A stretch of DNA of 64,000 nucleotides, from the sequence record OQ845958.1; one strand, written 5' to 3'. The position numbers and the translations under genes were made by a program. Below, piece after piece: positions 1,782 to 29,869 of this stretch (positions within the stretch are counted from its first letter, which is position 1; the number at the start of each line of letters is the position of its first letter). This DNA is from Escherichia phage pEC-M719-6WT.2. The notes under the pieces are model-generated. The model was given only the letters and a program-made list of their open reading frames with translations. It had not been told where the DNA came from and did no database searches.

Positions 1782-2116
1782 AACAACGTTTAGCTGAAGA
1801 TATTGCAGAAACTGCATTTCCAGAATGGACCCCCGCAGCGGGGGTTAATAAAGGTCTTTTAAAATTTATTGAAAACGCTGAGGGTGTTGACCTTGTTCAG
1901 TTAGGAAAGATTCATGGCTGTGATGATTATAGTCAGGTTCCTGATTGGGATATGGTAATGGCTATGGTTCGTCGGCGTGAACGTGCTTCTAAACGTGTTC
2001 CAAACTGTCCAGAATGCGGAACTGAACAGGTCCAGTTAGTCCATTGGCAGACTAGTAATCTTCGTTATAAATGCAGACATTGCAAACACAAATTTGAGCG
2101 AGAAGAAAATGAATAA
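1778..2116 (+). CDS. zinc-ribbon hypothetical protein
   Basis: CPECG...CRHC paired CxxC motifs; start overlaps upstream stop. Confidence 0.5.
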   Translation: MKQRLAEDIAETAFPEWTPAAGVNKGLLKFIENAEGVDLVQLGKIHGCDDYSQVPDWDMVMAMVRRRERASKRVPNCPECGTEQVQLVHWQTSNLRYKCRHCKHKFEREENE

Positions 2117-2420
2117 TTTAAACCCATTTAAAAGTCAAAATATCATTGAGACTGATGAGATGAAAGGCTTGTTTAAAGAACTTCAGGAATTAACGACCCG
2201 AATATGTCTCCAATACGTTGAAGATTGCGGTACAACAGTTAGTATAGATTCCATCCATCGTAATATTCAATCTTCAATTGATTATGCCATTACTGTTTTT
2301 AAAATCCGGGCTAATTCGGCTTTAATAAACCAACCAAATACAAATTTACCGTTAGAAGAGTGTATTGCAATAGCGGCCTATACAGCTTATAATGAGATTG
2401 TAGATAATGACAAAGCGTAA
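2109..2420 (+). CDS. hypothetical protein
   Basis: ORF in gene chain; ATG-2109 chosen over TTG-2094. Confidence 0.4.
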
Positions 2421-2649
2421 AGAATATCTTGAGACTGCTGATAAGGCGGTCCGTGAATTAACTCTGGCCTATTATAAAGAACACGGTAAACTTCCGGATA
2501 GTTATTCAGTATTGAAATCTGCTTTAACTCGTTCATATAATAATATGCGTTCAGAAGTTTATGGTATTATGGTCAAACATAAAGAACAAACCGGTCAATA
2601 CCCCGATTATACTGAGACCTTCAAACAAGTATTAGGAATTAAGGAATAA
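2407..2649 (+). CDS. hypothetical protein
   Basis: 80-aa ORF, ATG start, overlaps neighbours. Confidence 0.45.
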
Positions 2650-2650
2650 T

Positions 2651-2914
2651 ATGTTTAAAGTATATGGTTATGATTCATCTATTCATCGCTGTGTATTCTG
2701 CGATAATGCAAAACGTTTTTTGGATGTTAAAAAACAACCTTACGAGTTCATCAACGTTATGCCAGAAAAAGGTGTGTTTGATGATGAGAAGATTGCCCAA
2801 CTCCTGGCTGCACTTGGTCGCGAATCTCAAATTGGTTTGACCATGCCGCAAGTATTTGCTCCTGACGGAAGTCATATTGGCGGATTCACTGAACTGCGAG
2901 AATATTTTAAATGA
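2651..2914 (+). CDS. nrdC: NrdC thioredoxin (glutaredoxin-like)
   Basis: 87 aa, MFKVYGYDS...CVFCDNAKR...MPQVFAPDGSHIGGF; near-identical to remembered T4 NrdC. Confidence 0.88.
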   Translation: MFKVYGYDSSIHRCVFCDNAKRFLDVKKQPYEFINVMPEKGVFDDEKIAQLLAALGRESQIGLTMPQVFAPDGSHIGGFTELREYFK

Positions 2915-3078
2915 TTGAATTATTGTTGGGTATTTTGTATCTTATCATCGGTATTGGTTATGCTAAGACCCTAGCTAAAATAGATGATTTCGGTGCGGGT
3001 GACTTTTGTTGGTGGCTGACGTCTATGATTTGTTGGCCTTTATTTCTGGTTGGTGCTTCATTCTGGAACTTTAAATGA
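2911..3078 (+). CDS. small hydrophobic membrane protein
   Basis: 55-aa ORF MIELLLGILYLIIGIGY..., ATGA overlap with nrdC stop; below ORF-track size cut-off. Confidence 0.35.
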   Translation: MIELLLGILYLIIGIGYAKTLAKIDDFGAGDFCWWLTSMICWPLFLVGASFWNFK

Positions 3079-3247
3079 CCGAATTTGATATGGCCTATAA
3101 AACCTGCGCAAGAGAGTTTGATACTCCTGCGCCTAGTAAAGAAACCGTATTGGCAAATCTCCCGGATTGGTTAAAAGAAGAAGCCAACGAATGGGGTTGG
3201 ACTGATACTTGTGTACGCGACCAGTTATTTGAATTTATGGTGGAATT

Positions 3248-3556
3248 ATGAGTGAATTAGACGGACAAACAATTTATCTGGGCGATGGCAACGAAGACGA
3301 CCTGGAATATAAACTATACGAATACATGGTCGCCCTGGCAAAGGAAGAAGGTATTGACTTTGCTGTGGCTAACCCGTATGGTGAGAACACTGTTGTAATT
3401 GGTGGCACTGCTTATGAAGTCCAATGGCAATACGTTGGGCTTGAATCTATAGAATATGAAGAAGATAAGCATGGCGATTGGCATCCGGTGGGTCCCTGGT
3501 ACTGGGACGACGGTGAGCCTGATTTTGAAGTATCAAGCTATTGGAGTGACCAATGA
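3248..3556 (+). CDS. hypothetical acidic protein
   Basis: 102-aa ORF, overlapping stop/start with next ORF. Confidence 0.45.
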   Translation: MSELDGQTIYLGDGNEDDLEYKLYEYMVALAKEEGIDFAVANPYGENTVVIGGTAYEVQWQYVGLESIEYEEDKHGDWHPVGPWYWDDGEPDFEVSSYWSDQ

Positions 3557-3873
3557 CTATTGAAAATGAATTAGATGTTGATGCTGTTTTAAGCGAAATC
3601 ATTGAAGACCATGATGCGTTTACTGAATCATACGAGTTTGAATTTTCGGACTACCTGGTTCCGGTTGAATTAGGCGAATGGACACAATCTGGCAAATACC
3701 AATATCGCCAGGCAATTTATTTCAGCAAAAAACATAATGTACATGTGGCTGTAAACGAAACTCGTACCGGCTCTTATCATACCGACTGGGACCATATGGT
3801 CCCGACTGTTGAACTGGTCAAGCTCCAAGAACGTGTCGTAACCCAAACTATCAGAGAATGGATTACGCTATAA
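3553..3873 (+). CDS. hypothetical protein
   Basis: 106-aa ORF in coupled chain. Confidence 0.45.
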   Translation: MTIENELDVDAVLSEIIEDHDAFTESYEFEFSDYLVPVELGEWTQSGKYQYRQAIYFSKKHNVHVAVNETRTGSYHTDWDHMVPTVELVKLQERVVTQTIREWITL

Positions 3874-4163
3874 AACCATGGTACACCGCTCGATGGGAAA
3901 CCGTCGAGCCAGAGGAACCTGTTTACAACGATTCCGAAATAGATTATAATGAACCTTCAAACAATGATTTAATCGATATGGAGTTTGGATATGAGTACCA
4001 AAATTGAAATTGGCCGTCATAAAGGCCGCCTGATTGAAAAATCACTTTATGAACTGTCGGATTCCCGTAAGTTACCCGATGAAGAATCTGCTTTAATTTT
4101 TGCCGCGGCGGATTATATCCATTGGCTTGAAGCTCAACTTCGCTTTGCTGATAAGGCCTTTTA

Positions 4164-4436
4164 ATGTTTTTAGAAATTGTTAATATTCATGCGGCTGCTC
4201 AATCAGGTTTTATGAAAGAGCTTCAAGACGCAGGATTTAAAAATGGTGATGTTATCCATGCGTTAAGACAACGTTTTGACCCTGACGTTGAATGTAATGT
4301 TTGGGACGTTGTTGAAACGGATGAATACCTTTTTGATACCATAGAAATTGAAGGGTCATGGACCTGTATCACTGAGTATATGATAATTGATAATGGTAAC
4401 GTTGAATGCCATTATCCTTGTTTTAGGATTGTTTAA
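4164..4436 (+). CDS. hypothetical protein
   Basis: 90-aa ORF, ATG overlapping upstream stop. Confidence 0.4.
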   Translation: MFLEIVNIHAAAQSGFMKELQDAGFKNGDVIHALRQRFDPDVECNVWDVVETDEYLFDTIEIEGSWTCITEYMIIDNGNVECHYPCFRIV

Positions 4437-4647
4437 TGAAAACTGCATTAGTCTATACCGAAAAGTTAAACGGTGACAAGGTCTGGAAACTTCTTATCAA
4501 AGGAAGCCCTACTGACCAGTTTATGGCCACCTGTGTGGGATTGTATACTCGTCCTACTAAAAAGATGATTCGTCAATTTAAACGGTTACACCGCGCGTTT
4601 TATAAGATTTAATAAATACCCTTATCTAATAATGGTAAGGGTTTATT

Positions 4648-5121
4648 ATGTTGTTGACTGGCAAATTATACAAAGAAGAAAAACAAAAACTTTATGATGC
4701 ACAAGCTGGTAAGTGTCCAATTTGCCACCGTGATTTGGACTCCGATGTTCAGGCCAACCATCTTGACCATGACCACGAATTGAACGGGCCAAAAGCCGGT
4801 AAGGTTCGCGGGTTACTATGCAATCTGTGCAATGGGACAGAAGGACAAATGAAGCATAAGTTCAGCCGTTCGGGTCTGAAAAGTCGCGATGTTGACTACC
4901 TGGAATGGTTAGAGAGTTTGCTTGTCTATCTGAAATCTGATTATACCGAAAACAATATTCACCCCAATTTTGTAACAGACAAAGCCAAAGAGTTCGGTCG
5001 TCTGGGGAAAGAAGAAATGATTCGGGAAATGCTTTTGAATGGTATGACTTATAATGAATCTGACACCAAAACACAATTAATGGCTTCATTTAAGAAGCAG
5101 CTTAGAAAGAGTTTAAAATGA
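4648..5121 (+). CDS. 49: endonuclease VII (Holliday junction resolvase)
   Basis: 157 aa, MLLTGKLYKEEKQK...HLDHDHELNGPKAGKVRGLLCNLCN; near-identical to remembered T4 gp49. Confidence 0.92.
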   Translation: MLLTGKLYKEEKQKLYDAQAGKCPICHRDLDSDVQANHLDHDHELNGPKAGKVRGLLCNLCNGTEGQMKHKFSRSGLKSRDVDYLEWLESLLVYLKSDYTENNIHPNFVTDKAKEFGRLGKEEMIREMLLNGMTYNESDTKTQLMASFKKQLRKSLK

Positions 5122-6935
5122 CAATTGAAAACGAAATTGAAGGATTGATTCATAAAACTAATAAAGACCTTTTAAACGAGAATGCTAATAAAGATTCTCG
5201 TGTTTTTCCAACTCAACGGGACCTTATGGCTGGTATTGTATCTAAACACATTGCCAAAAATATGGTTGCGCCTTTTATTATGAAAGCACATGAAAGTGGA
5301 ATTATTCATTTCCATGATATTGATTATTCCCCTGCTCTTCCATTTACTAATTGCTGTTTAGTAGATTTAAAAGGAATGCTTGAGAACGGATTTAAGCTTG
5401 GTAATGCACAGATTGAAACTCCTAAATCAATCGGTGTTGCTACTGCAATTATGGCACAAATTACTGCACAGGTTGCTTCTCACCAATATGGCGGAACGAC
5501 TTTTGCTAATGTAGACAAAGTATTTTCTCCTTATGTTAAACGTACATACGCAAAACATATTGAAGATGCAGAAAAATGGCAAATCACTGATGCATTGAAT
5601 TATGCCCAATCTAAAACAGAAAAAGACGTATACGATGCATTCCAAGCTTATGAATATGAAGTAAATACTCTCTTTAGTTCAAACGGACAAACGCCTTTTG
5701 TAACCATTACATTTGGTACGGGAACTGACTGGACTGAACGAATGATTCAGAAAGCAATTCTGAAAAATCGTATCAAAGGTCTTGGTCGCGATGGGATAAC
5801 TCCTATTTTCCCTAAACTTGTTATGTTCGTTGAAGAAGGTGTTAATCTTTATAAAGACGACCCGAACTATGATATTAAGCAGCTTGCTCTAGAGTGTGCA
5901 AGCAAAAGGATGTATCCTGATATTATTTCAGCTAAGAATAATAAAGCTATCACTGGTTCATCTATTCCTGTTTCTCCAATGGGTTGCCGTAGTTTCTTGG
6001 GCGTATGGAAAGATTCGACTGGTAATGAAATTCTTGATGGACGTAATAATCTTGGTGTTGTAACACTGAATCTTCCTCGCATTGCGTTAGATTCTTATAT
6101 TGGAACACAGTTCAATGAACAGAAATTTATCGAATTGTTCAATGAGCGAATGGATTTGTGTTTTGAAGCTTTGATGTGTAGAATTAATTCCTTAAAAGGA
6201 GTTAAAGCGACTGTTGCTCCTATTCTTTACCAAGAAGGTGCATTCGGGGTTCGTCTTAAACCTGATGATGATATAATTGAGTTATTTAAAAACGGTAGAA
6301 GTTCAGTGTCTTTGGGATACATTGGTATTCACGAATTGAATATTCTTGCCGGTCGTGATATTGGGCAAGAAATTTTAACTAAAATGAATGCTCGTCTTAA
6401 GCAGTGGACTGAAAGAACCGGTTTTGCTTTTAGTTTGTATTCTACACCTGCTGAAAACCTTTGTTATCGCTTCTGTAAACTTGATACTGAAAAATATGGA
6501 AGTGTAAAGGATGTTACTGATAAAGGCTGGTACACTAATAGTTTCCATGTTTCAGTAGAAGAAAATATCACCCCGTTTGAAAAGATTTCCCGCGAAGCTC
6601 CATATCATTTCATTGCGACAGGTGGTCACATTTCTTATGTTGAACTTCCTGATATGAAAAATAACTTAAAAGGTCTTGAGGCTGTATGGGATTATGCTGC
6701 GCAACATTTAGATTATTTTGGTGTTAACATGCCAGTAGATAAATGTTTTACGTGTGGAAGTACCCATGAAATGACTCCTACTGAAAACGGATTTGTTTGT
6801 TCTATTTGTGGAGAAACTGACCCTAAAAAGATGAACACAATAAGAAGAACTTGTGGTTATTTGGGAAATCCGAACGAACGCGGATTTAATCTCGGCAAAA
6901 ATAAAGAAATCATGCATAGGGTTAAACACCAATGA
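5118..6935 (+). CDS. nrdD: anaerobic ribonucleoside-triphosphate reductase
   Basis: 605 aa, C-terminal glycyl-radical motif RRTCGYLG and Zn-ribbon cysteines; one uninterrupted ORF. Confidence 0.92.
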   Translation: MTIENEIEGLIHKTNKDLLNENANKDSRVFPTQRDLMAGIVSKHIAKNMVAPFIMKAHESGIIHFHDIDYSPALPFTNCCLVDLKGMLENGFKLGNAQIETPKSIGVATAIMAQITAQVASHQYGGTTFANVDKVFSPYVKRTYAKHIEDAEKWQITDALNYAQSKTEKDVYDAFQAYEYEVNTLFSSNGQTPFVTITFGTGTDWTERMIQKAILKNRIKGLGRDGITPIFPKLVMFVEEGVNLYKDDPNYDIKQLALECASKRMYPDIISAKNNKAITGSSIPVSPMGCRSFLGVWKDSTGNEILDGRNNLGVVTLNLPRIALDSYIGTQFNEQKFIELFNERMDLCFEALMCRINSLKGVKATVAPILYQEGAFGVRLKPDDDIIELFKNGRSSVSLGYIGIHELNILAGRDIGQEILTKMNARLKQWTERTGFAFSLYSTPAENLCYRFCKLDTEKYGSVKDVTDKGWYTNSFHVSVEENITPFEKISREAPYHFIATGGHISYVELPDMKNNLKGLEAVWDYAAQHLDYFGVNMPVDKCFTCGSTHEMTPTENGFVCSICGETDPKKMNTIRRTCGYLGNPNERGFNLGKNKEIMHRVKHQ

Positions 6936-10687: not shown

Positions 10688-11245
10688 ATGAACGAAATTA
10701 AATTAACCAAGAATAACTATGTAAATAATAAAGAGCTTCTGAAAGCTATTTCGGAGTGGAAACAGAAGCTGAATGCGAACACCGACCCGAATAAAATTAT
10801 TCGCCAGAACGATGTTATTGGTCTGGCAATTATGCTTATAGCCGAAGGTCTTAGCAAACGTTTCAACTTCTCCGGATATACCCAATCCTGGAAGCAAGAA
10901 ATGATTGCAGACGGAATTGAGGCCGCAATAAAAGGTCTTCATAACTTCGACGAAACAAAATACGATAATCCACATGCTTACATAACAATGGCTTGCTTCA
11001 ATGCTTTCGTTCAGCGTATCAAAAAAGAACGTAAAGAAATGGCAAAGAAATATAGCTACTTCGTTCATAACGTGTATGATTCACGTGACGACGATATGGT
11101 GGCTCTGGCTGATGAAACATTTATCCAGGACATCTATGACAAAATGACACAGTACGAATCCTCTTTAGTTAAAGCGCCAGGGTCTGATAAGAGCGCCAAA
11201 GATAAAGAAGGTGATTTGGATTTTTTATATGGAACATCAATTTGA
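10688..11245 (+). CDS. 55: late-transcription sigma factor gp55
   Basis: 185 aa; long identical runs to remembered T4 gp55 ([35 protein letters not shown]). Confidence 0.92.
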
Positions 11246-19070: not shown

Positions 19071-21785
19071 ATGCAAGAATTTTATTTAACTATCGAACAA
19101 ATCGGTGACAATCTGCTCGAACGATACATTGACAAGAACGGTCATGAACGTGTTCGTGAAATCCCTTATGCTCCATGCTTGTTTATGCATGCTCGCGAAG
19201 ACCAGGCTGCAAAGTATACAGACATCTATAATAAAGGTTGTGTGAAAAAAGAATTCGATTCCATGCGTGATGCATCCCAGTGGATGAAGCGAATGAATGA
19301 CATGGGTCTCGAAGCTATGGGTATGGATGACTTTAAACTCGCATACTTGTCCGACCGTTACCCGCACGAAATCAAATACGATTCAAGTAAAATCCGTGTG
19401 GCTAACTTCGATATCGAGGTGACATCTCCTGATGGGTTCCCTGAGCCGTCTGAAGCACGTCACCCTATTGATGCCCTGACGCACTATGATTCGGTAGACG
19501 ATAAATTCTATGTCTTTGACCTTTTGAGCTCACCATACGCCACTGTGGAGCAATGGTCTATCGATATTGCTGCTAAGCTGCAAGAAGATGGCGGTGATGA
19601 AGTCCCTGAAGAAATCCTGGAAAAAATTGTTTATATGGCTTTCGATTCAGAAGAAGAAATGCTCCAGCAGTATTTGGTATTCTGGAACGAGAAAACTCCG
19701 GTTATGTTAACTGGTTGGAACATCGAGAAGTTTGATATTCCATATATCTACAACCGCCTTAAAAATGTATTTGGTGAAGCTACAGCAAAACGACTGAGTC
19801 CACATCGTCGTACAAAAGTTAAGGTCATTAACAATGGCTTCGGTGAAGAACAAGAAATCATTCAGATTCTGGGTATCTCTGTTCTGGATTATCTGGACCT
19901 GTACAAAAAGTTCAGCTTCACAAACCAACCGTCTTATTCGTTGGATTATGTTGCGGAATCTGAACTTGGTGTTGGTAAACTCCCGTATGATGGTCCGATT
20001 TCTAAACTGCGTGAATCAAATCACCAACGGTATATTTCTTATAACATCATTGATGTTTATCGTGTTGTGCAGATTGACCGTAAGCGGCAGTTTATTAACC
20101 TGAGTCAGTCAATGGGTTATTACGCAAAAATGCAGATTCAGTCTGTATTCAGCCCAATCAAAACTTGGGATGCGATTATCTTTAACAGCCTGAAGACTCA
20201 AAACAAAGTCATTCCGGAAACCAAATCGCATGTTCGCCAATCGTTCCCTGGTGCATTTGTTAAGGAACCGATTCCGAACGCATACAAATACGTTATGAGC
20301 TGTGACTTAACATCTCTGTATCCGAGCATCATTCGACAGATTAACATCAGTCCAGAAACGATTGCCGGGTCATTTGCACCAGCGCCGATGTACGAATACA
20401 TTGCAGGAACTGCTGACCGTCCATCTGATACATTTAGTTGTGCTCCAAACGGTATGATGTATTTTAAAGATGTTGCGGGTATTATTCCGACAGAAGTCAC
20501 CAAGGTGTTTAATCAGCGTAAAGAGCATAAAGGTTATATGCTTGCGGCTCAACGTAATGGTGAACTGATTAAGGAAGCCCTGCGTAATCCAGGAACTGGT
20601 ACAACCGAGCCTGAAGTTGATTATCGTTATGACTTTGATGACAATATGAAAACAACCTTGCATGGTCTGAATCAAACAGTTCTGAATGGTATGTTGTACA
20701 AAGCGCAAATGGAAGAAGTTGCAGGCATGACCGCACAGATTAACCGTAAACTGCTTATCAACAGTTGTTATGGCGCTCTGGGTAATATCTGGTTCCGTTA
20801 CTTTGACCTGCGAAATGCAACCGCGATTACATCTTTCGGACAACTTGCATTGCAGTGGATTGAGCGTAAAGTTAACGAATATTTTGATAGTGTTTGCGGT
20901 ACAAGTGGTGAAACATATGTATTCTATGGTGATACTGACTCCATTTATATCCAGTGCGATAACCTGATTAAAAAGGTTGGTGGTGAATCTAAATTCCGCG
21001 ATACAAACCACCTGGTTGACTTCATGGACAAGTTTGCGAAAGACCGTCTGGAACCGGCAATCGATAAAGCTTTCCGTGAGCTGGCTGAATACATGAACAA
21101 CAAACAACACCTTATGTTTATGGACCGTGAAGCGATTGCATGTCCTCCGCTGGGTTCTAAAGGTGTTGGTGGATTCTGGACAGCGAAGAAGCGTTATGCT
21201 CTGAACGTGTACGATATGGAAGGCACACGATACGCTGTTCCGAAACTGAAAATCATGGGCCTGGAAACTCAAAAGTCGAGTACACCAAAAGCATGTCAGA
21301 AAGCTCTGAAAGAATGTATCCGCCGTATGCTGCAAGAAGGTGAAGAATCTCTGCAGACATACTTCAAGGAATTCAACAAGGAATTTAATGAGCTTAACTA
21401 CATGACCATCGCAGGTGTATCATCAGTTAACAACATCCAGAAATATAATGAGGGTGGTTTCCCTGGATTTAAGTGCCCAGCTCATATCAAAGGCGTGCTC
21501 GCTTACATGCGTGCAACTAAAGGTATGAAGACTGTTCCACAAATCATGGAAGGGGAAAAGGTGTATGTACTTCCTCTTAAAGTTGGTAACCCGTTTGGCG
21601 AAACCGTGATTGCATGGCCATCAGGGATTGAACTCCCGATTGAAATCCGTGACCAGGTTCTGCAGTGGATGGACTACAACACACTGTTCCAGAAGACTTT
21701 TGTCAAACCGTTAACAGGGTTCTCTGAAGCGGCTAAGGTTGATTACGAGAAAAAAGCATCTCTTTTTGATATGTTTGATTTTTAA
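19071..21785 (+). CDS. 43: DNA polymerase gp43 (family B)
   Basis: 904 aa; exonuclease and polymerase motifs (FDIE, YGDTDS), N-terminus matches remembered T4 gp43. Confidence 0.97.
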   Translation: MQEFYLTIEQIGDNLLERYIDKNGHERVREIPYAPCLFMHAREDQAAKYTDIYNKGCVKKEFDSMRDASQWMKRMNDMGLEAMGMDDFKLAYLSDRYPHEIKYDSSKIRVANFDIEVTSPDGFPEPSEARHPIDALTHYDSVDDKFYVFDLLSSPYATVEQWSIDIAAKLQEDGGDEVPEEILEKIVYMAFDSEEEMLQQYLVFWNEKTPVMLTGWNIEKFDIPYIYNRLKNVFGEATAKRLSPHRRTKVKVINNGFGEEQEIIQILGISVLDYLDLYKKFSFTNQPSYSLDYVAESELGVGKLPYDGPISKLRESNHQRYISYNIIDVYRVVQIDRKRQFINLSQSMGYYAKMQIQSVFSPIKTWDAIIFNSLKTQNKVIPETKSHVRQSFPGAFVKEPIPNAYKYVMSCDLTSLYPSIIRQINISPETIAGSFAPAPMYEYIAGTADRPSDTFSCAPNGMMYFKDVAGIIPTEVTKVFNQRKEHKGYMLAAQRNGELIKEALRNPGTGTTEPEVDYRYDFDDNMKTTLHGLNQTVLNGMLYKAQMEEVAGMTAQINRKLLINSCYGALGNIWFRYFDLRNATAITSFGQLALQWIERKVNEYFDSVCGTSGETYVFYGDTDSIYIQCDNLIKKVGGESKFRDTNHLVDFMDKFAKDRLEPAIDKAFRELAEYMNNKQHLMFMDREAIACPPLGSKGVGGFWTAKKRYALNVYDMEGTRYAVPKLKIMGLETQKSSTPKACQKALKECIRRMLQEGEESLQTYFKEFNKEFNELNYMTIAGVSSVNNIQKYNEGGFPGFKCPAHIKGVLAYMRATKGMKTVPQIMEGEKVYVLPLKVGNPFGETVIAWPSGIELPIEIRDQVLQWMDYNTLFQKTFVKPLTGFSEAAKVDYEKKASLFDMFDF

Positions 21786-22100: not shown

Positions 22101-22240
22101 AGATAATTACAATTATTGTACTGATTGCATTTTTTAGTATGTCAATCTATTGGGCAATAATGACTCCGCATATGATTCCAACTTTAATTTTGGGTTGGAT
22201 ATTTTTGGGACTCCAAGCTCGCTATGAATGTTTTAATTGA
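22097..22240 (+). CDS. small membrane protein
   Basis: 47-aa hydrophobic ORF, ATGA overlap with imm-like stop. Confidence 0.3.
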   Translation: MKIITIIVLIAFFSMSIYWAIMTPHMIPTLILGWIFLGLQARYECFN

Positions 22241-22250
22241 GGAAAATACA

Positions 22251-22754
22251 ATGAAAAAGTTAGCTATCGCAGCTGTTATGCTGCTATCCGGTTGTGCTTA
22301 CCAGGGTGATGTAGTTAATGCCAGTGAGATTGGTAAAGCAAGAATTGCTGCAGACCGTCAGGTGCATAATGGTTCCTTTGATTTCAAAGGTGGTACTGGA
22401 CTTATCTACAAACGCGACAACAATCAATGTGGAAATAACTGCGCAAAATATGCTCAACAAGAAATTGAGTACAAACGCGAGCAAGCTGCAAAGCATGACG
22501 AAATCATTGCCAAGCTGGAAGCAGAAACTAAGCGACAAAATGACCTGGACACTGTTAACCAGATTTCACAGGTATGCATGTCATATATCAATATGCAGAT
22601 AAACATCATGCGTGCAGAAGCTTATCAGGCAGCGGAGACGGGTTCTCCAAAAGCCAATGAGTATCGCGATATGTATCAGCGTTCTGCTCAAAACCGTCTG
22701 AGCTATATTAATAAATGTATAGCTAAAGAGAAAGCACGCCAAGGTATTAACTGA
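22251..22754 (+). CDS. putative lipoprotein
   Basis: Signal peptide with lipobox LLSGC; SD GAGGA before ATG-22251. Confidence 0.5.
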   Translation: MKKLAIAAVMLLSGCAYQGDVVNASEIGKARIAADRQVHNGSFDFKGGTGLIYKRDNNQCGNNCAKYAQQEIEYKREQAAKHDEIIAKLEAETKRQNDLDTVNQISQVCMSYINMQINIMRAEAYQAAETGSPKANEYRDMYQRSAQNRLSYINKCIAKEKARQGIN

Positions 22755-24275: not shown

Positions 24276-24609
24276 TATCGATTTATCTGATTTAGATAAT
24301 TTCGAGAAAGATGCGGAGGGAGCTAAGGCTCCTTCTGTACCTTACTACGAAAAAAGTTTGGAGATTATCCGGCAATCCATGGGAACTGTGCGACAGGAAA
24401 TTCTGTTATCACTCCCCGATGGGTCCAATCACATCGTGTACGTAACCGGAATTAAAATTGAACCATCTGGAAAAGTTTCAGTTGATTTCGGCACCCCTTC
24501 TGAAGACCGCAAAGCGGAGCTTGCAGTGCATGTAGAAAAGTGTGTTACAATGCAAATACAAGATGAAATTGATAAGATTAAAATGAAAAAGAGGTGGTGG
24601 AAGTGGTAG
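24265..24609 (+). CDS. 40: gp40-like protein (by position)
   Basis: 114-aa ORF between uvsX and gp41 as in T4; size-compatible. Confidence 0.55.
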   Translation: MMNDIDLSDLDNFEKDAEGAKAPSVPYYEKSLEIIRQSMGTVRQEILLSLPDGSNHIVYVTGIKIEPSGKVSVDFGTPSEDRKAELAVHVEKCVTMQIQDEIDKIKMKKRWWKW

Positions 24610-26033
24610 AAACTATTTTATCCCAGCTACTCTTTAACAAGGAATATTTTGTTAAAGTCTGGCCATATCTGAATAGCACATATTTTGAAAAGGGTCCAGC
24701 GAAGACCCTTTTTAATACGATTAACGAACACGTAAAAGAATATCAGGCGGTGCCAACTAAGACTGCACTTGATATCGCGCTCGACAGTTCTGACCTTTCT
24801 GAAGTTGAATATGAAGGCACCAAGAAACTCTTAGGAGTCCTTGCTGATACTCCAGAAGACCAGGAATGGTTGGTTAGAGAAACCGAGAAGTATGTACAGA
24901 AGTCTGCGATGTTCAATGCCACATCCCGGATTATCGAAATCCAGAGTAATGCCGAACTTCCGAAAGATAAACGTGATAAACGAATCCCGGATATTGGTGC
25001 TATCCCTGATATCATGCGTGATGCATTATCTATCTGTTTTGACTCTGCACTGGGCCATGACTGGTTAAACGATTACGAAGCTCGATTCCAGACTTATCTG
25101 AACAAATCGAAGAAAGTTCCGTTCCGCATTAATATCCTGAATAAAATCACGAAGGGTGGAGTTGAGTATGGTACAGAAAACGTTTTACTGGCCGGGACCA
25201 ACGTCGGGAAATCTCTAGGACTTTGTTCGTTAGCGGCTGACTATCTTCAGACTGGTCATAACGTTCTTTATATAAGCATGGAAATGGCCGAAGAAGTATG
25301 CGCCAAACGTATTGATGCCAACTTGCTGGATGTGTCTCTGGATGATATTGATGAAGGTCATATATCATGGGCAGAATATAAAGCTAAGATGGAAAAATGG
25401 CGTGCTTCCGGGACTCTTGGGACTCTGAAGATAAAACAATATCCAACTGGTGGTGCTCATGCGGATACCTTCCGCGCGTTGCTGAATGAATACAAACTGA
25501 AGCAAGGGTTTGTGCCGGATGTGATTATTGTCGACTACCTGGCAATCTGTGCAAGCTCAAGACTGAAAACGTTTACCGAAAACAGTTACGGCCTGATTAA
25601 GATGGTTGCAGAAGAACTTCGTGGTCTGGCAGTCGAGAAAAATGTGGTCTTGTGGACTGCAGCGCAGACAACCAGGGGCGCGAACGTTGCAGCCGAGATT
25701 GATATGGCTGACATTGCAGAATCCTTTGGTATTGCTCACACGGCTGACTTTATGTTGGGTGTTGTTGAGACCGAAGAATTCGCTCAAATGGGGCTGCAGT
25801 TAATCAAACAGCTTAAGTCTCGTTATGGTGATAAGAACTACTATAATAAATTCAAGATGGGTGTTAAGAAAGGTAATCAGCGCTGGTATGAGGTTGATGA
25901 TGATTCGGCTCCTAAACAAGGCCCTACGGTTAAAGAAGCCACCGGTGAGATGAATCGCCAGGCTGAAATGAATAGACAAACCAGGGTCAACAGGAGCGAC
26001 CTGGACGACCTTGCTGCTCAAATGAAATTTTAA
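24594..26033 (+). CDS. 41: replicative DNA helicase gp41 (DnaB-like)
   Basis: 479 aa, GTG start, Walker A GTNVGKS, strong match to remembered T4 gp41. Confidence 0.95.
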   Translation: MVEVVETILSQLLFNKEYFVKVWPYLNSTYFEKGPAKTLFNTINEHVKEYQAVPTKTALDIALDSSDLSEVEYEGTKKLLGVLADTPEDQEWLVRETEKYVQKSAMFNATSRIIEIQSNAELPKDKRDKRIPDIGAIPDIMRDALSICFDSALGHDWLNDYEARFQTYLNKSKKVPFRINILNKITKGGVEYGTENVLLAGTNVGKSLGLCSLAADYLQTGHNVLYISMEMAEEVCAKRIDANLLDVSLDDIDEGHISWAEYKAKMEKWRASGTLGTLKIKQYPTGGAHADTFRALLNEYKLKQGFVPDVIIVDYLAICASSRLKTFTENSYGLIKMVAEELRGLAVEKNVVLWTAAQTTRGANVAAEIDMADIAESFGIAHTADFMLGVVETEEFAQMGLQLIKQLKSRYGDKNYYNKFKMGVKKGNQRWYEVDDDSAPKQGPTVKEATGEMNRQAEMNRQTRVNRSDLDDLAAQMKF

Positions 26034-26045
26034 AATATTTAAAAA

Positions 26046-26068
26046 GGGGCTTACAGCCCCTTTTTCTT
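26046..26068 (+). terminator. intrinsic terminator GGGGC-ttaca-GCCCC + TTTTTCTT
   Basis: GC stem plus T-run immediately after gp41 stop. Confidence 0.6.
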
Positions 26069-26078
26069 ATGTTATAAT
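26051..26078 (+). promoter_or_regulatory. early promoter overlapping terminator (-35 TTACAG in loop, extended -10 TGTTATAAT)
   Basis: 17-nt spacing between loop hexamer and TATAAT. Confidence 0.4.
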
Positions 26079-26104
26079 GACTCTATCAACTACTGGAGAA
26101 TAAA

Positions 26105-26422
26105 ATGAAAACCATTGATTGCAAGGCAGAATACAAAGTTTATTATCATGGGTCAAGCTCTAATGCTGGAATCCAAAATATGCTTTGTCCTCCTGATGCA
26201 ACTGGTGTTCTGTCAGAAGTTGGACGTAAGAAAAATTTAGGGCGTGTGTTTTTTACTGAAGATATTGGTTTGGCGCGTATCTATGCAGGAAGAGCAGCTC
26301 GCTCATATGGAGGAGAGCCCCGTCTTTATCGTGTGATTGCACCGGTTGACGTGGTTTGTTTAAATGATACTAAAGGCGCAACAGTTTATCACGCTGCCTG
26401 GGCCTTCTGCGAGGAAATCTAA
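26105..26422 (+). CDS. hypothetical protein with PARP/diphtheria-toxin-like H-G-S motif
   Basis: 105 aa; VYYHGSSSNAGIQNM then GRVFFTED; first ORF of the island after gp41; SD GGAG. Confidence 0.45.
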   Translation: MKTIDCKAEYKVYYHGSSSNAGIQNMLCPPDATGVLSEVGRKKNLGRVFFTEDIGLARIYAGRAARSYGGEPRLYRVIAPVDVVCLNDTKGATVYHAAWAFCEEI

Positions 26423-26626
26423 ATGTATAAATTAGAAAACGTAGTATTTATTGGTTGGTTTGAAAATGGTAATATGTTTACCAAAGAAACCGCGCTGGAT
26501 GTTAGTGACCAAAATATGATTGAATGGGTTACAGTGCAGTATGCAGAAGTGAATAATGCGCTGGTTAAAGCCTTTGTTAATGACAATAAAGTTTTTGAAT
26601 ATGATGCCCGCATTGAGGAAATTTAA
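26423..26626 (+). CDS. Dmd-like small protein (tentative)
   Basis: 67-aa ORF in the gp41-gp61 island where T4 has 61.5/dmd; similarity recalled from memory only. Confidence 0.4.
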   Translation: MYKLENVVFIGWFENGNMFTKETALDVSDQNMIEWVTVQYAEVNNALVKAFVNDNKVFEYDARIEEI

Positions 26627-26866
26627 ATGAATATCACATTAATGAAACCTACCCCTAGTTCTTTTTGGAATAAATCTTTTGGTAAGCATAATATGTTTAT
26701 CCAACGCACCGTAAGCAGCTGGGAACTAGTTCTTTCAGTCGGCCACAATGATTATGAACAAGAATACGTAGAGTTCTTCGAATTTCCTGTGAAACCTACC
26801 AAGCGTCAGATTCGTCAGACAAAACGCAAATTCCGCAAAATTTATCTGGAAGATGCATTAAAATAG
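26627..26866 (+). CDS. hypothetical basic protein
   Basis: 79-aa ORF. Confidence 0.4.
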   Translation: MNITLMKPTPSSFWNKSFGKHNMFIQRTVSSWELVLSVGHNDYEQEYVEFFEFPVKPTKRQIRQTKRKFRKIYLEDALK

Positions 26867-26895
26867 TGTACAACAAAGGGATAATGCTGTATATT
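26867..26895 (+). promoter_or_regulatory. early promoter (-35 TGTACA, -10 TATATT) with hairpin GGGATAAT/ATTATCCC
   Basis: 17-nt spacer; 8-bp stem encloses -10. Confidence 0.4.
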
Positions 26896-26923
26896 ATCCC
26901 TATCAACTACTGAGGAGATTGAA

Positions 26924-27217
26924 ATGAAAAAGTTATTAATCGCGGCAATTCTTACCGTAGCATCATGTGGTACAGCTCCAGTTACTGCTGGACTTGATAA
27001 AGACCTTTGTGAGTGGTCTATGACTGCTGACCAGACTGATGTTGAACATCAGATTTATGCTGATATTATGAACATAACTAAACGTGACCGCCCTGATATG
27101 GTTAAAGAAGTATCTGACAAATTGACTTCTGGTGACGTTATGCAGTATAACTATGTTCTGTATTGCGATGCTTCATTTGACAATAGCAAAATTGTTCAAT
27201 GGGTTACAGGTGAATAA
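26924..27217 (+). CDS. sp: Spackle-like periplasmic protein
   Basis: 97 aa with signal peptide MKKLLIAAILTVASC; size and position (61.3-like) fit T4 spackle. Confidence 0.55.
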   Translation: MKKLLIAAILTVASCGTAPVTAGLDKDLCEWSMTADQTDVEHQIYADIMNITKRDRPDMVKEVSDKLTSGDVMQYNYVLYCDASFDNSKIVQWVTGE

Positions 27218-27218
27218 A

Positions 27219-27656
27219 ATGATTAACAGAAATTTAGTTATCAAAAAACTTCGCTGTAAAAATCCAAATGCACAGGCATACCGGGTGTTTTGGAGCGACG
27301 AAATTCAATACCTGGGTTATTTTCTTGTTGATAGTGATGATAGAATTACGTTTGCTCATAAGCTTCTTAACAAAGAATTAAACCATTGGCAAGAACTTAT
27401 TGCAGTCAAGTCTAAATTATTTTCGCGCAATACAATGCACCAATTGGTTTATTTTTTCGCTGATGGTATTCCTGACAAGGTTGAGTTTGATGGGTTTGAA
27501 TTTAAAGACATCAATCCTAACAATGAATTGAATGACAGTATTGTTAATATGGGTATTCCTGGTAAGTACATCAAAAACAGTCTTTTGAAAATTCTGGAAA
27601 CCCCTGTATATTCAGTTGACGACCAAATTTTTAATGCCTTTATGAAGCGAGATTAA
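27219..27656 (+). CDS. hypothetical protein (paralogous C-terminus)
   Basis: Ends ...DDQIFNAFMKRD, same tail as next ORF. Confidence 0.45.
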   Translation: MINRNLVIKKLRCKNPNAQAYRVFWSDEIQYLGYFLVDSDDRITFAHKLLNKELNHWQELIAVKSKLFSRNTMHQLVYFFADGIPDKVEFDGFEFKDINPNNELNDSIVNMGIPGKYIKNSLLKILETPVYSVDDQIFNAFMKRD

Positions 27657-27657
27657 T

Positions 27658-28026
27658 ATGTATATTCAAAGCGATTTGTCTTATCTGAATTTTGAATTAG
27701 TTAAAAATAATGATGGTAATGCTCATTATGAATTCCGCGAGCCTCGTTATAATCAGGCGATTGGTTATATTATTGTTAAAGATGGCGTTATCATAAAGGC
27801 TCGCTCATTTATGGTAATGAATGGGCCTTATGAAGATACTCGTGGCTATCCATTTGATAAAAAGAATGTACGCGATTGTGCAGCGTGGATAACCGGAAAT
27901 CCTGAAATTGGGGTCATGCTATCTACTGAAGCAAATGACATTCTGGATGCTGGCTGGGTTAAATCTCAAGAACCGCCTACTGATATTGATGACCAGATTT
28001 TTAATGCTTTCATGAAGCGAGGTTAA
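27658..28026 (+). CDS. hypothetical protein (paralogous C-terminus)
   Basis: Ends ...DDQIFNAFMKRG. Confidence 0.45.
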   Translation: MYIQSDLSYLNFELVKNNDGNAHYEFREPRYNQAIGYIIVKDGVIIKARSFMVMNGPYEDTRGYPFDKKNVRDCAAWITGNPEIGVMLSTEANDILDAGWVKSQEPPTDIDDQIFNAFMKRG

Positions 28027-28027
28027 T

Positions 28028-28219
28028 ATGACTGCAATGTGTACGGGCTCTAAGATTTCGGTCTTCCAGATTTTTGAAGAATATGAAATCGTGTCGCAAG
28101 ACCAAGAAGCAATCCATGTTATCGCTGATGATGGTGTTACCTGGATTATTCCGTTGTATCATGAAGACACCTATGAAGTGACTGATGCAAATGGCGATAA
28201 AGCTATCTTCGTTGTATAA
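28028..28219 (+). CDS. hypothetical acidic protein
   Basis: 63-aa ORF. Confidence 0.35.
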   Translation: MTAMCTGSKISVFQIFEEYEIVSQDQEAIHVIADDGVTWIIPLYHEDTYEVTDANGDKAIFVV

Positions 28220-28222
28220 ATA
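28215..28222 (+). promoter_or_regulatory. late promoter TATAAATA
   Basis: Exact T4 late consensus 18 nt upstream of ATG-28240. Confidence 0.45.
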
Positions 28223-28239
28223 GCGGAAAGGGGGGTGTT

Positions 28240-28407
28240 ATGAAAACATTCAAAGATTTTATCAATGAAGATATGGTTGCCGGTGATGCAGGTGGAAACC
28301 CAACTAATATCGCAACAGGTACCACTTCCGGGGCAGTTGTCAATAAAGGTCCTGAACAAATCCCATCAAAAAAGCGTAAGAATAAAGACGATAAACCTAC
28401 AGTATAA
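28240..28407 (+). CDS. small Gly/Thr-rich protein with basic tail, late-promoter driven
   Basis: 55-aa ORF with SD AAGGGGGG; followed by hairpin ATGGTCC-tccg-GGACCAT. Confidence 0.35.
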   Translation: MKTFKDFINEDMVAGDAGGNPTNIATGTTSGAVVNKGPEQIPSKKRKNKDDKPTV

Positions 28408-28439
28408 TGGTCCTCCGGGACCATTGAAATGAGGAAACT

Positions 28440-29468
28440 ATGTCATATATTGATAGAGAATTTGCAGTCAAAGCTTTATCGTATCAACCACGTTACAGAG
28501 AAGTCACCGGGAGCACATTTAAGGCAAACTGTCGTTGTAAGGTTTGTGGTGACTCCCAGAAAGATTCGCACAAGGCTCGATTCTGGGCGTATACCAATCC
28601 ATCTGATGGTGCGGTTTACGTGAAATGTTTTAACTGTGACTACTCCACGCATATAAGCAAATACATAAAAGAGTTTGAGCCGGATTTGCACCGGGAATAT
28701 ATGGTTGAGAAGTACAAGGAAAACGCCTTCGGTCGACAACGTAATGAAGTTGCAGAAGCTCCGAAAGAACCAGAAAAAACTCCGGTTATTGAAGAGCTTG
28801 CTTTTTGTGAAAGAATTGATACTTTACCAGAAGAGCATCCGATAGTTAAGTATGTAAAAAGTCGGTGTATTCCGAGCAATGTTTGGAACCGGTTATGGTT
28901 TACAAACAAATGGCCTGCATTAGTTAACTCCGTTAATCCTGGGACGTATAAGAATGAAACGAATGAACCACGCTTGGTTATTCCTATCTTCAACGGCAAA
29001 AAAGAAATCGAATCTTTCCAAGGACGAGCTCTTCGCAAAGATGCACCACAAAAATATATCACAATCAAAGCTCACCCAGAAGCTTCCAAAGTCTATGGCG
29101 TAGACAAGATTGATGAGCGCAAGCGCGTGTGGGTAATGGAAGGTCCGATTGATAGTTTGTTTATCCCTAACAGCATTGCGATAACTGGTGGAACATTAGC
29201 ATTGGAAGCCGTTCCTTATGCTGAAACCCGAGTATGGGTAATGGACAACGAGCCAAGACATCCGGATACGATTAAACGTATGAAGAAGCTCGTTGAAGCG
29301 GGTGAAGCCGTTATGTTCTGGGACAATGCACCATGGCATACGAAAGACATAAATGAGATGGTTAAATCGGAGGGCGCAACCCCTGAACAAATCGAATCAT
29401 ATATGGCCGATAACATTGCTCAAGGGTTGATGGCGAGAATGCGACTTTCGAAGTACGCAAAAGTTTAG
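28440..29468 (+). CDS. 61: DNA primase gp61
   Basis: 342 aa; N-terminal zinc ribbon (CRCKVCGDS...CFNCDY); same length as T4 gp61. Confidence 0.92.
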   Translation: MSYIDREFAVKALSYQPRYREVTGSTFKANCRCKVCGDSQKDSHKARFWAYTNPSDGAVYVKCFNCDYSTHISKYIKEFEPDLHREYMVEKYKENAFGRQRNEVAEAPKEPEKTPVIEELAFCERIDTLPEEHPIVKYVKSRCIPSNVWNRLWFTNKWPALVNSVNPGTYKNETNEPRLVIPIFNGKKEIESFQGRALRKDAPQKYITIKAHPEASKVYGVDKIDERKRVWVMEGPIDSLFIPNSIAITGGTLALEAVPYAETRVWVMDNEPRHPDTIKRMKKLVEAGEAVMFWDNAPWHTKDINEMVKSEGATPEQIESYMADNIAQGLMARMRLSKYAKV

Positions 29469-29586: not shown

Positions 29587-29784
29587 CTATATAAGGCCGA
29601 TTAATGCCAGTAAAATATCTACAACTGATTCGAGTGCAATGACTGGTAATATAACACCATGTGTCAATGCAACAGGGGCAACAACGAAGTTCCATAGTAG
29701 AACTAAACAGAGTATCGAAAGGACCAGAATCGTTCGCTTACGACTGCCTTTGATGGCTTGAATTAGACTAGATAGTTTGAGCAT
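29587..29784 (-). CDS. small two-TM membrane protein (reverse strand)
   Basis: 65 aa from internal Met with strong SD GGAGGA 5 nt upstream; hairpin downstream of stop. Confidence 0.45.
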   Translation of the reverse strand: MLKLSSLIQAIKGSRKRTILVLSILCLVLLWNFVVAPVALTHGVILPVIALESVVDILLALIGLI

Positions 29785-29869
29785 ATATCCTCCTTCCGTG
29801 TATTTATGCTTCAAACCAATATGATATAATTAACATACAAAATAACATGAATTGATAAGGAAAAATATA

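Follow-up and report, generated by a model that had tools for sequence, protein, structure and literature searches.

A probable expanded copy of the T4-type anti-toxin-antitoxin island, with eight small genes, between genes 41 and 61 of Escherichia phage pEC-M719-6WT.2

The window analyzed here is a 64,000-nucleotide stretch of Escherichia phage pEC-M719-6WT.2 (record OQ845958.1), a T4-type coliphage of the Gaprivervirus/Dhakavirus group, and our subject is the 2.4-kb interval between its genes for the replicative helicase gp41 and the primase gp61. The left core-gene boundary, gp41 (24594-26033, + strand), is 99.8% identical to the helicase of Escherichia phage ECML-359 in a tblastn comparison and 65% identical to T4 gp41. 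The right boundary, gp61 (28440-29468, + strand), is 60% identical to T4 gp61 and 95.3% identical to that of phage VR7, and its counterpart in phage MN01 bears a DNA primase annotation. From the end of gp41 (26033) to the start of gp61 (28440) there are exactly eight open reading frames (ORFs), all on the + strand and here called O1 to O8, as an earlier, sequence-only reading of this DNA had claimed. Every ORF has a PHROG match (E 1e-32 to 2e-93), and they are therefore real genes and not chance ORFs. Stop and start are separated by 0-1 nucleotides (nt) at five of the junctions, and a Shine-Dalgarno (SD)-like motif accompanies every start. The start of O5 is set at ATG 27219, not at the upstream GTG 27132 of the automatic ORF list, because the phrog_8539 match spans residues 1-145 of 145 and because annotated homologues agree with it. 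The island is slightly AT-rich, with a GC content of 0.33-0.40 vs 0.40-0.49 in its flanks. Rfam returned only sub-threshold matches on the terminator hairpin in the interval, which holds no tRNAs, and an NCBIfam scan of all eight ORFs gave no match. The sequence is not new. Across the interval, ECML-359 has 99.3% identity and MN01 98%, the gene order is already annotated in MN01 and EAWsc9, and matches occur in 114 phage records, with at least 80% of the interval covered in 35 of these.

Only three of the ORFs, those for Dmd, TifA and Spackle, are assigned as orthologues of characterized T4 proteins. O2 (26423-26626, + strand, 67 amino acids, aa) scores 73.6 bits against the Dmd family PF17587 of Pfam (gathering score 27), is 56% identical to T4 Dmd and matches PDB entry 5i8j at E 1.1e-21, as well as 5hy3. 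Dmd is an inhibitor of the RNase toxins RnlA and LsoA (PMC9391042, PMC11257639). O3 (26627-26866, + strand, 79 aa) is the TifA (gp61.4) homologue, with 70.9 bits against DUF7279 (PF23945, gathering score 24.5), 45% identity to T4 TifA (E 1.6e-15) and a central basic cluster, PTKRQIRQTKRKFRK; the TifA family inhibits ToxN (PMC9391042, PMC10853763). O4 (26924-27217, + strand, 97 aa) matches the Spackle (gp61.3) family PF25676 at 146.4 bits over its full length (1-96/96), is 65% identical to T4 Sp and finds PDB entry 6x6o at E 1.3e-37. Its hydrophobic N-terminus, MKKLLIAAILTVASC, was noted by eye, and by its sequence O4 is identified as the periplasmic inhibitor of the gp5 tail lysozyme that acts in superinfection exclusion. 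Homology thus assigns Dmd to RnlA and LsoA, TifA to ToxN, and Spackle to the lysozyme of superinfecting phages; neutralization of host toxins by products of this island is known from the T4 and RB69 orthologues (PMC9391042, PMC11257639). O8 (28240-28407, + strand, 55 aa, phrog_1823) is the gp61.1 homologue, with 75% identity to the T4 protein over 52 aa (word size 2) and 86% over 42 aa in another comparison. The gene order shared with T4 is 41, dmd, 61.4, sp, 61.2, 61.1, 61. The sequence-only reading had the coordinates of its Dmd-like and Spackle-like ORFs exactly right, and the picture that it considered to be fatal to its own proposal, in which all eight ORFs are close homologues of characterized T4 61.x proteins, is not the one found. 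It had left the other ORFs unrecognized, but O3 is TifA, O8 is 61.1, O5 and O6 belong to the AdfA family, and O7 is a homologue of RB69 ORF033c. Six of the eight ORFs are assignable to named families.

The position of T4's 208-aa AdfA (61.2) is filled here by O5 (27219-27656, + strand, 145 aa, phrog_8539), O6 (27658-28026, + strand, 122 aa, phrog_4122) and O7 (28028-28219, + strand, 63 aa, phrog_3249), and the RB69 homologue of O7, ORF033c, likewise follows adfA in RB69. AdfA, or anti-DarT factor A, counters the toxin DarT1 and binds it (PMC11257639). Sequence comparison and structure prediction identify O5 and O6 as two diverged AdfA-family paralogues, with good support for O6 and moderate support for O5. 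O6-type proteins occur in 332 phage records and hold the 61.2 position in T2 and most Tequatroviruses. The 118-aa T2 protein of this slot reaches 32.5 bits on the AdfA profile PF23813 (gathering score 27) across profile positions 113-211 and is therefore a half-length AdfA, to which O6 is 45-47% identical. A word-indexed protein search with O6 alone missed these T2-type relatives, and the family alignment recovered them. In hhalign the O6 family aligns with AdfA residues 123-208, the C-terminal half of that protein, over 87 columns and at 96% probability. The AlphaFold2 (AF2) model of O6 has a core (residues 9-100) with pLDDT of about 90, then a linker of low confidence and a terminal helix that is weakly predicted, and a Foldseek search of BFVD with this model retrieves the O5 homologue of phage VR25 (E 1.8e-5) and a 212-aa protein (E 4.7e-4) whose length is that of RB69-type AdfA and whose identity is unconfirmed. 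A joint MAFFT alignment of the AdfA, O5 and O6 groups also shows a shared G-x-x-x-V-x-D-x-x-I core in addition to the tail described below. O5 homologues are found in 85 records, all Dhaka-/Gaprivervirus-like, and a few more distant metagenomic relatives have the extended tail motif KYIKNSLLKILE.PVYS(I/V)DDQIF. The EAWsc9 labels for these two proteins, "serine/threonine protein kinase" for O5 and "DUF2528" for O6, were reproduced by neither Pfam nor NCBIfam. No solved structure resembling the AdfA-family fold was found, and a sequence search of PDB with AdfA, O6, O5 and TifA gave no usable match.

O5 and O6 resemble AdfA in position, in their C-terminal DDQIFNAFM, in the alignment of O6 with AdfA residues 123-208 and in related predicted folds, but they differ from it in length, O6 being about half and O5 about two-thirds as long, and in that neither reaches the Pfam gathering score. 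The DarT1-binding determinant at position 164 is also not conserved, D73 of O6 (NVRDCA) standing opposite H165 of T4 AdfA (NIINHIA) in the hhalign alignment. Each protein would consist of a small alpha/beta domain, a variable linker and an invariant tail. By analogy with AdfA, O5 and O6 are most likely binders of host toxin or defense proteins that act stoichiometrically, each on a target of its own.

Both O5 and O6 end in (V/I)DDQIFNAFMKR(D/G), the same tail as AdfA. The tail is encoded by a direct repeat on the + strand, with copy 1 at 27616-27660 (the O5 end VDDQIFNAFMKRD, the stop and the next start) and copy 2, 89% identical to it, at 27986-28030 (the O6 end IDDQIFNAFMKRG, again with the stop and next start). 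The nonapeptide DDQIFNAFM is invariant in 14 copies from eight genomes although five of its nine codons vary, solely by synonymous change, and outside the tail the proteins are only 20-27% identical. An invariant peptide with synonymous codon change points to selection on the amino-acid sequence, and the tail, which follows a low-confidence linker of variable length and sequence, has the look of a docking peptide. The tail-coding DNA also looks like a recombination joint. The last tail residue is D where an O6-type gene comes next (5/5) and G in the other cases (9/9), and hence a cassette boundary seems to lie inside the tail-coding DNA (27654-27660 and 28024-28030 in the window). The Yersinia phage phiD1 has AdfA followed by two O6-type copies of identical length, each ending in the tail; its record contains ambiguous residues (X) there, and this is either a true tandem duplication or an assembly artefact. 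A 33-aa tail fragment also lies between the two O6-type genes in phiD1 (within locus 1873-3409).

What the tail might dock onto is a more speculative matter. The ends of gp43, gp55 and gp33 that bind the sliding clamp gp45 are acidic-hydrophobic and lie at the extreme C-terminus (PMC2988020). The AdfA-family tail has the same arrangement, being acidic and hydrophobic and placed at the extreme C-terminus behind a flexible linker. In the window, gp43 (19071-21785) ends in KKASLFDMFDF, the SLFDMFDF of which can be set against QIFNAFMK of the tail; this end matches the 11-residue RB69 polymerase peptide that was reportedly co-crystallized with the clamp. Matches to the pattern [STQDE][LIVM]F[DN][AMLIV]F number just three among 229 six-frame ORFs of the window (the gp43 end and the O5 and O6 tails); having been devised after the sequences were seen, it is a lead and no test. 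Readings of the tail as a PIP-box or as a beta-clamp QL(S/D)LF motif were set aside on account of unsuitable spacing, leaving only the resemblance to LFDMF of the gp43 type. It is conceivable, though we consider it unlikely, that DDQIFNAFM is a docking motif for gp45 that would anchor a set of exchangeable inhibitor domains, those of AdfA, O5 and O6, at phage DNA under replication, the place where DarT and similar toxins attack exposed single strands, with the same sequence serving as the recombination joint for swapping and stacking cassettes. A gp55-like protein is encoded elsewhere in the window at 10688-11245.

The island opens with O1 (26105-26422, + strand, 105 aa, phrog_2110), a homologue of RB69 ORF040c, in which the sequence-only reading had rightly noticed a motif of the ADP-ribosyltransferase (ART) type. 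Model and profile comparisons identify it as a minimal, free-standing ART-fold protein of an Arr/Tpt1-like branch. The AF2 model (pLDDT 87, pTM 0.77) adopts an ART fold nearest to Tpt1, Arr and AcrIF11, the nearest structural relative being the RNA 2'-phosphotransferase Tpt1. The O1 family comprises 121 clusters, nearly all of about 105 aa and at least 52% identical, with H15, G16, P30, R41, N44, L45, F49, T51, D53, L56, A57, Y60, A61, R63, G70, G91 and A92 invariant; the invariant residues include the His of the HG(S/T) motif and, at the second motif position, a Phe (F49). A single-profile sequence search of PDB gave no usable match. Against 1.84 billion representative proteins the O1 profile found 253 relatives; in many of these the domain is embedded in a large protein, and its partners there are ART-PolyVal, NUDIX, GNAT, Toprim, lambda-type portal and 2H/Acb1-like phosphoesterase domains. 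In relatives detected at E 1e-25 to 1e-29 the same segment matches Arr-ms (PF12120) with 26.9-29.4 bits (gathering score 25), and this match above the gathering score is one ground for placing O1 with Arr and Tpt1. Polyvalent proteins of phages and conjugative elements have been described (Iyer et al. 2017, PMC5512222) and the multi-domain relatives of O1 are of this kind, whereas O1 itself appears to be a free-standing early gene product and not part of an injected fusion. One polyvalent-type protein of 954 aa (P0162) combines a lambda-family portal, an O1-like ART (692-785) and a 2H/Acb1-like phosphoesterase (833-921), an ART-2H pairing that recalls the KptA/2H RNA-repair link. O1 differs from its named relatives in size (105 aa vs 143 for Arr and about 180 for Tpt1), in lacking the RNA-binding lobe of Tpt1, in having Phe at the Tyr position of Arr and in carrying a distinctive invariant SE-GRKKNL loop.

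O1 is present in 609 phage records, among them phages of Escherichia, Klebsiella (116), Acinetobacter (68), Aeromonas (62) and Vibrio. It is 84.8% identical to RB69 ORF040c, vs 67.2% for gp41 and 61.7% for gp61, and its homologues in Acinetobacter and Aeromonas phages still have 64-74% identity, while gp41 falls to 58-60% in the Acinetobacter phages sampled. That O1 is more conserved than the helicase and primase on either side suggests a substrate that is itself conserved. O1 may be an NAD+-binding ART enzyme made at the start of infection. Its target would be something highly conserved, for instance the end of a nucleic acid, a small molecule or part of the conserved machinery of the host, and not a fast-evolving defense protein. 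Judged from its position, O1 is very probably the "p0068-family" ART that has been reported beside Dmd in enterophages (Iyer, Burroughs, Anantharaman and Aravind, Viruses 2022, PMC9503650). In Klebsiella phage Matisse and Erwinia phage Cronus the O1 homologue is not beside the 41-61 genes within the approximately 4 kb examined. In both phages an RNA ligase gene of the Rnl2 type lies a few genes downstream of it, and a neighbor in Matisse is labelled "decoy of host sigma70."

Two predicted regulatory cassettes divide the island. The first (26041-26104, + strand), directly 3' of gp41, holds a predicted terminator and early promoter, as the sequence-only reading had suggested. An 11-bp GGGG..CCCC stem-loop with a T-run (26041-26065) carries a -35-like CTTACA in its loop, and is followed by an extended -10 element, TG-TATAAT (26073-26078), the SD sequence GGAG and the O1 start; the promoter matches the consensus at 10/12 positions plus the TG. 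The second (26867-26923, + strand) precedes the Spackle gene and has a -35 TGTACA, a stem-loop (26877-26901) overlapping the -10 TATATT (26890-26895) and the SD sequence GAGGAG. The two share the 5' leader CTATCAACTACTG, and repeat D3 (26073-26095 vs 26890-26912) is 83% identical. In the region, terminator-like sites number 6 vs 1.5 +/- 1.3 expected and promoter-like sites 17 vs 9.5 +/- 3.1 expected. Promoter-early stem-loop (PeSL) elements are known from the hyperplastic regions of T4-type phages (Arbiol et al. 2010, PMC2839356; Comeau et al. 2014, PMC4122927). Both cassettes have the PeSL layout (PMC2839356), with a sigma-70-like promoter and an overlapping GGGG..CCCC-type stem-loop, an SD sequence and a start codon at the border of a variable gene block. 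In T4 itself, one early promoter lies upstream of dmd and another downstream of tifA (PMC9391042). Since the layout matches PeSL and agrees with the T4 promoter data, the genes probably form two early operons, and early transcription would proceed as two units, [O1-dmd-tifA] and [sp-O5-O6-O7-61.1(-61)], each behind a PeSL-type cassette. The apparent recombination site inside the AdfA slot differs from PeSL, being a coding repeat of the shared tail.

Eight annotated genomes (T4, T2, phiD1, RB69, VR7, JS98, MN01 and EAWsc9) were used for a comparative map, and they bear out the earlier description of the locus as variable, with differing gene content at the same site across T4-like phages. The 41-61 interval of T4 holds dmd, tifA, sp, adfA and 61.1; that of T2 is the same with a short AdfA, and that of phiD1 has adfA plus two short copies. 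In RB69 the order is ORF041c, O1, dmd, 61.4, imm.1, imm, sp, adfA, O7, ORF032c and 61.1, in VR7 it is ORF045c, O1, dmd, ORF042c, 61.4, sp, O5, O6, a second DUF7279 gene, O7 and 61.1, and in JS98 it is O1, dmd, 61.4, sp, O5, a second DUF7279 gene, O7 and 61.1. Left of the O5/O6 junction the window is closest to JS98 (dmd 98.5%, tifA 97.5%, sp 88.7%, O5 86.1%), and right of it to VR7 (O6 83.5%, O7 96.8%, 61.1 100%, gp61 95.3%). Its dmd and tifA are only 49-73% VR7-like and its gp61 is only 69% JS98-like. By these identities the island is a mosaic, with a Dhakavirus-like left half, a Gaprivervirus-like right half and a parentage switch at the O5/O6 junction, and the locus is identified as a hot spot where small early genes are gained, lost and exchanged. 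The locus itself was already known, genomes of this lineage had been sequenced before, and the interval here combines known cassettes into one particular mosaic. Diversification may proceed by homologous recombination at short conserved sequences, namely the PeSLs and, inside the AdfA slot, the tail-coding repeat, which would add, swap or duplicate whole cassettes. IMG/VR scans yielded 5 loci for gp61 relatives and 16 for the tail-coding pattern, too few for a population survey.

Several further differences were seen in the compared genomes. The second TifA-like DUF7279 gene, of 73 aa, lies between the AdfA-family genes and O7 in VR7 (locus 3839-4060) and JS98 (locus 3217-3438, orf29, 71.4 bits on Pfam) and has no counterpart in the window. 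The left edge is also variable, with an extra gene between gp41 and O1 in MN01 (locus 1192-1494) and VR7 (locus 1193-1495), both of the 100-aa phrog_17014, and in RB69 (124-aa phrog_10668, locus 5525-5899), and no such gene in the window. In RB69 (locus 4012-4690) the superinfection-immunity genes imm and imm.1 sit within the island between 61.4 and sp, and it follows that the island gathers superinfection-exclusion as well as anti-toxin genes; the imm genes of T4 are near gene 43.

For the T4 genes dmd-tifA-sp-adfA-61.1 the name "anti-TA island" has been put forward, TA standing for toxin-antitoxin (Srikant, Guegler and Laub 2022, PMC9391042; LeRoux et al. 2022; also PMC11257639), in line with the earlier remark that this interval of T4 holds anti-defense functions. 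The interval in the window has the features of that island, lying between genes 41 and 61 on the same strand with dmd, tifA, sp, divergent adfA-family genes and 61.1 in order. It shares with T4 the flanking core genes, the order of the common genes, orthologues of Dmd, TifA, Spackle and 61.1, and early promoters (predicted in the window) before dmd and before sp. It differs in having eight genes instead of five, an ART-fold gene upstream of dmd, and two shorter paralogues plus O7 in place of full-length AdfA. Overall, we consider it likely, with a probability of about 0.8, that the interval is this phage's copy of the T4-type hyperplastic accessory (anti-TA) island, expanded to eight genes, with two early units, AdfA-family binders, a mini-ART and recombinational diversification. 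The earlier suggestion that the locus is a plausible home of counter-defense genes also holds in general terms.

A number of points weigh against this interpretation. The counter-defense roles of O1, O5, O6, O7 and O8 are suggested by neighborhood and remote homology, and no experimental study of O1, O5, O6-type proteins, O7 or 61.1 turned up in our literature searches. The promoters and terminators are consensus matches. In the AdfA slot, O6 itself scores 20.7 bits on PF23813, below the gathering score of 27 and through the tail only, O5 has no Pfam match at all, and hhalign joins O5 to AdfA through the tail alone. Deletion of adfA in T4 gave no phenotype on DarTG1 (PMC11257639), and inhibition of DarT-like toxins may therefore not be the general role of the family. 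O1 itself has no Pfam match at E <= 1, its second motif residue is Phe and not His or Tyr, a conserved third catalytic acid could not be placed (E103 is not kept in distant relatives), and a widened O1 profile found Arr in PDB at only E 0.42, behind chance matches to glucose-6-phosphate isomerase. On the strength of the Phe and the unplaced acid, the catalytic activity of O1 is uncertain. Its strong conservation is also unlike that of typical anti-defense proteins and equally fits a role in host takeover or nucleic-acid metabolism.

This last point leads to the alternative that the uncharacterized genes, chiefly O1, have host-takeover or nucleic-acid-metabolism functions, the island being a bin of early accessory genes in which O1 modifies conserved host machinery like T4 Alt, ModA and ModB, or RNA ends like Tpt1. 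A protein more conserved than gp41 and gp61, and found in phages of many host genera, fits a conserved target, and the closeness of the O1 model to Tpt1, the ART-2H pairing of P0162 and the position of the O1 homologue about 1.4-1.8 kb upstream of an RNA ligase gene in Matisse and Cronus all speak for this reading; we regard this alternative as possible, although clearly the less probable one. It has also been proposed in print that the ART and Dmd are a toxin-antitoxin pair (PMC9503650), here a phage type II system with O1 as toxin and Dmd as antitoxin. The TAA stop of O1 is followed directly by the dmd ATG with no spacer, the same adjacency recurs in RB69, JS98, VR7 and MN01, and O1-like domains occupy the C-termini of large proteins, a typical position for toxin modules. 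The two genes have, however, largely independent distributions, each being present without the other in several hundred genomes. Dmd is found in 797 records (Escherichia, Shigella, Yersinia and Salmonella-type phages), and Klebsiella, Acinetobacter and Aeromonas, to whose phages 116, 68 and 62 of the O1 records belong, are absent among the organism groups listed for it. T4, T2 and phiD1 have Dmd but not O1, whereas in Matisse, Konradin, phage 65, Cronus and Vibrio phage 501E54-1 O1 is followed by a gene other than dmd, and by a different one in each phage. Dmd also has a demonstrated independent target in RnlA/LsoA. With co-occurrence this inconsistent, gene distribution makes an obligate pair quite unlikely.

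Similar questions surround the AdfA slot. The tail could have been kept for its DNA, as a recombination linker, as a carrier of translation signals for the next gene or as both, with the peptide itself functionless. The 89% identity of the 45-nt repeat between O5 and O6 would be expected on these grounds, as would the SD sequence (GAGG/GAGA) and the TAATATG stop-start overlap in its last codons, and recombination is indicated by the phiD1 cassette duplication, the D/G rule and the parentage switch. Yet such signals account for only the last three codons, and they do not explain why every codon change in DDQIFNAFM is synonymous across 14 copies of otherwise dissimilar proteins. A middle promoter was also considered, as the box TGCTT, with TAATAT 11 nt later, is present in O6 and T4, but this MotA-box is broken in the GCC alleles (O5, VR7, JS98) and the GCA allele (RB69) and was rejected. 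We therefore find it doubtful that the tail is maintained for its DNA alone. Decay of a split adfA into non-functional fragments would account for O5 and O6 together filling one slot, for the alignment of O6 to the C-terminal half of AdfA and for the PNAQ(A/C)Y motif at the O5 N-terminus, which resembles that of AdfA. It is very hard to reconcile with full-length homologues of conserved length (85 records for O5, 332 for the O6 type), with the start and SD sequence that each gene has of its own and the complete tail on both, with the O6 type standing alone in T2 and about 300 Tequatrovirus genomes, or with the compact, confidently predicted fold of the O6 core. The frequent frameshifts or stop codons expected of decaying genes were not seen in O5 or O6 among the genomes examined, and we consider this explanation highly improbable. 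The interpretation of the interval as an expanded T4-type island with AdfA-family paralogues is preferred over all of these.

Some observations were made outside the island. Between gp43 and uvsX there is an ORF of 176 aa (22224-22754, phrog_1754) whose product has a lipoprotein-like N-terminus, MKKLAIAAVMLLSGC; the corresponding stretch of T4 holds imm, 42 and beta-gt. Just downstream of gp61, a small hydrophobic ORF of 75 aa (29587-29814, - strand, phrog_2024) has a counterpart in EAWsc9 annotated as "holin family protein." The T4-like phage protein clusters P0124 and P0039 bear the NCBI names of bacterial metagenome bins (Limosilactobacillus reuteri, Selenomonadaceae), and are probably from phage contigs binned with bacteria.

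The 41-61 island is among the few phage loci with several adjacent genes of demonstrated effect, each against a different bacterial toxin, and these demonstrated roles of their neighbors make O1, O5, O6, O7 and 61.1 sensible candidate counter-defense factors. For the AdfA family, it appears that T2-like phages said to lack adfA carry a short family member in the same slot, and that some phages stack two or three members. The shared, selected C-terminal peptide is a concrete starting point for experiments on mechanism. Few accessory genes of T4-like phages are as conserved as the mini-ART, whose distribution argues against Dmd being its antitoxin. The leads that remain are the mini-ART, with its substrate and its independence from Dmd, the possible role of O5 and O6 as further inhibitors of the AdfA family, and the selected tail that may mark a recombination joint.

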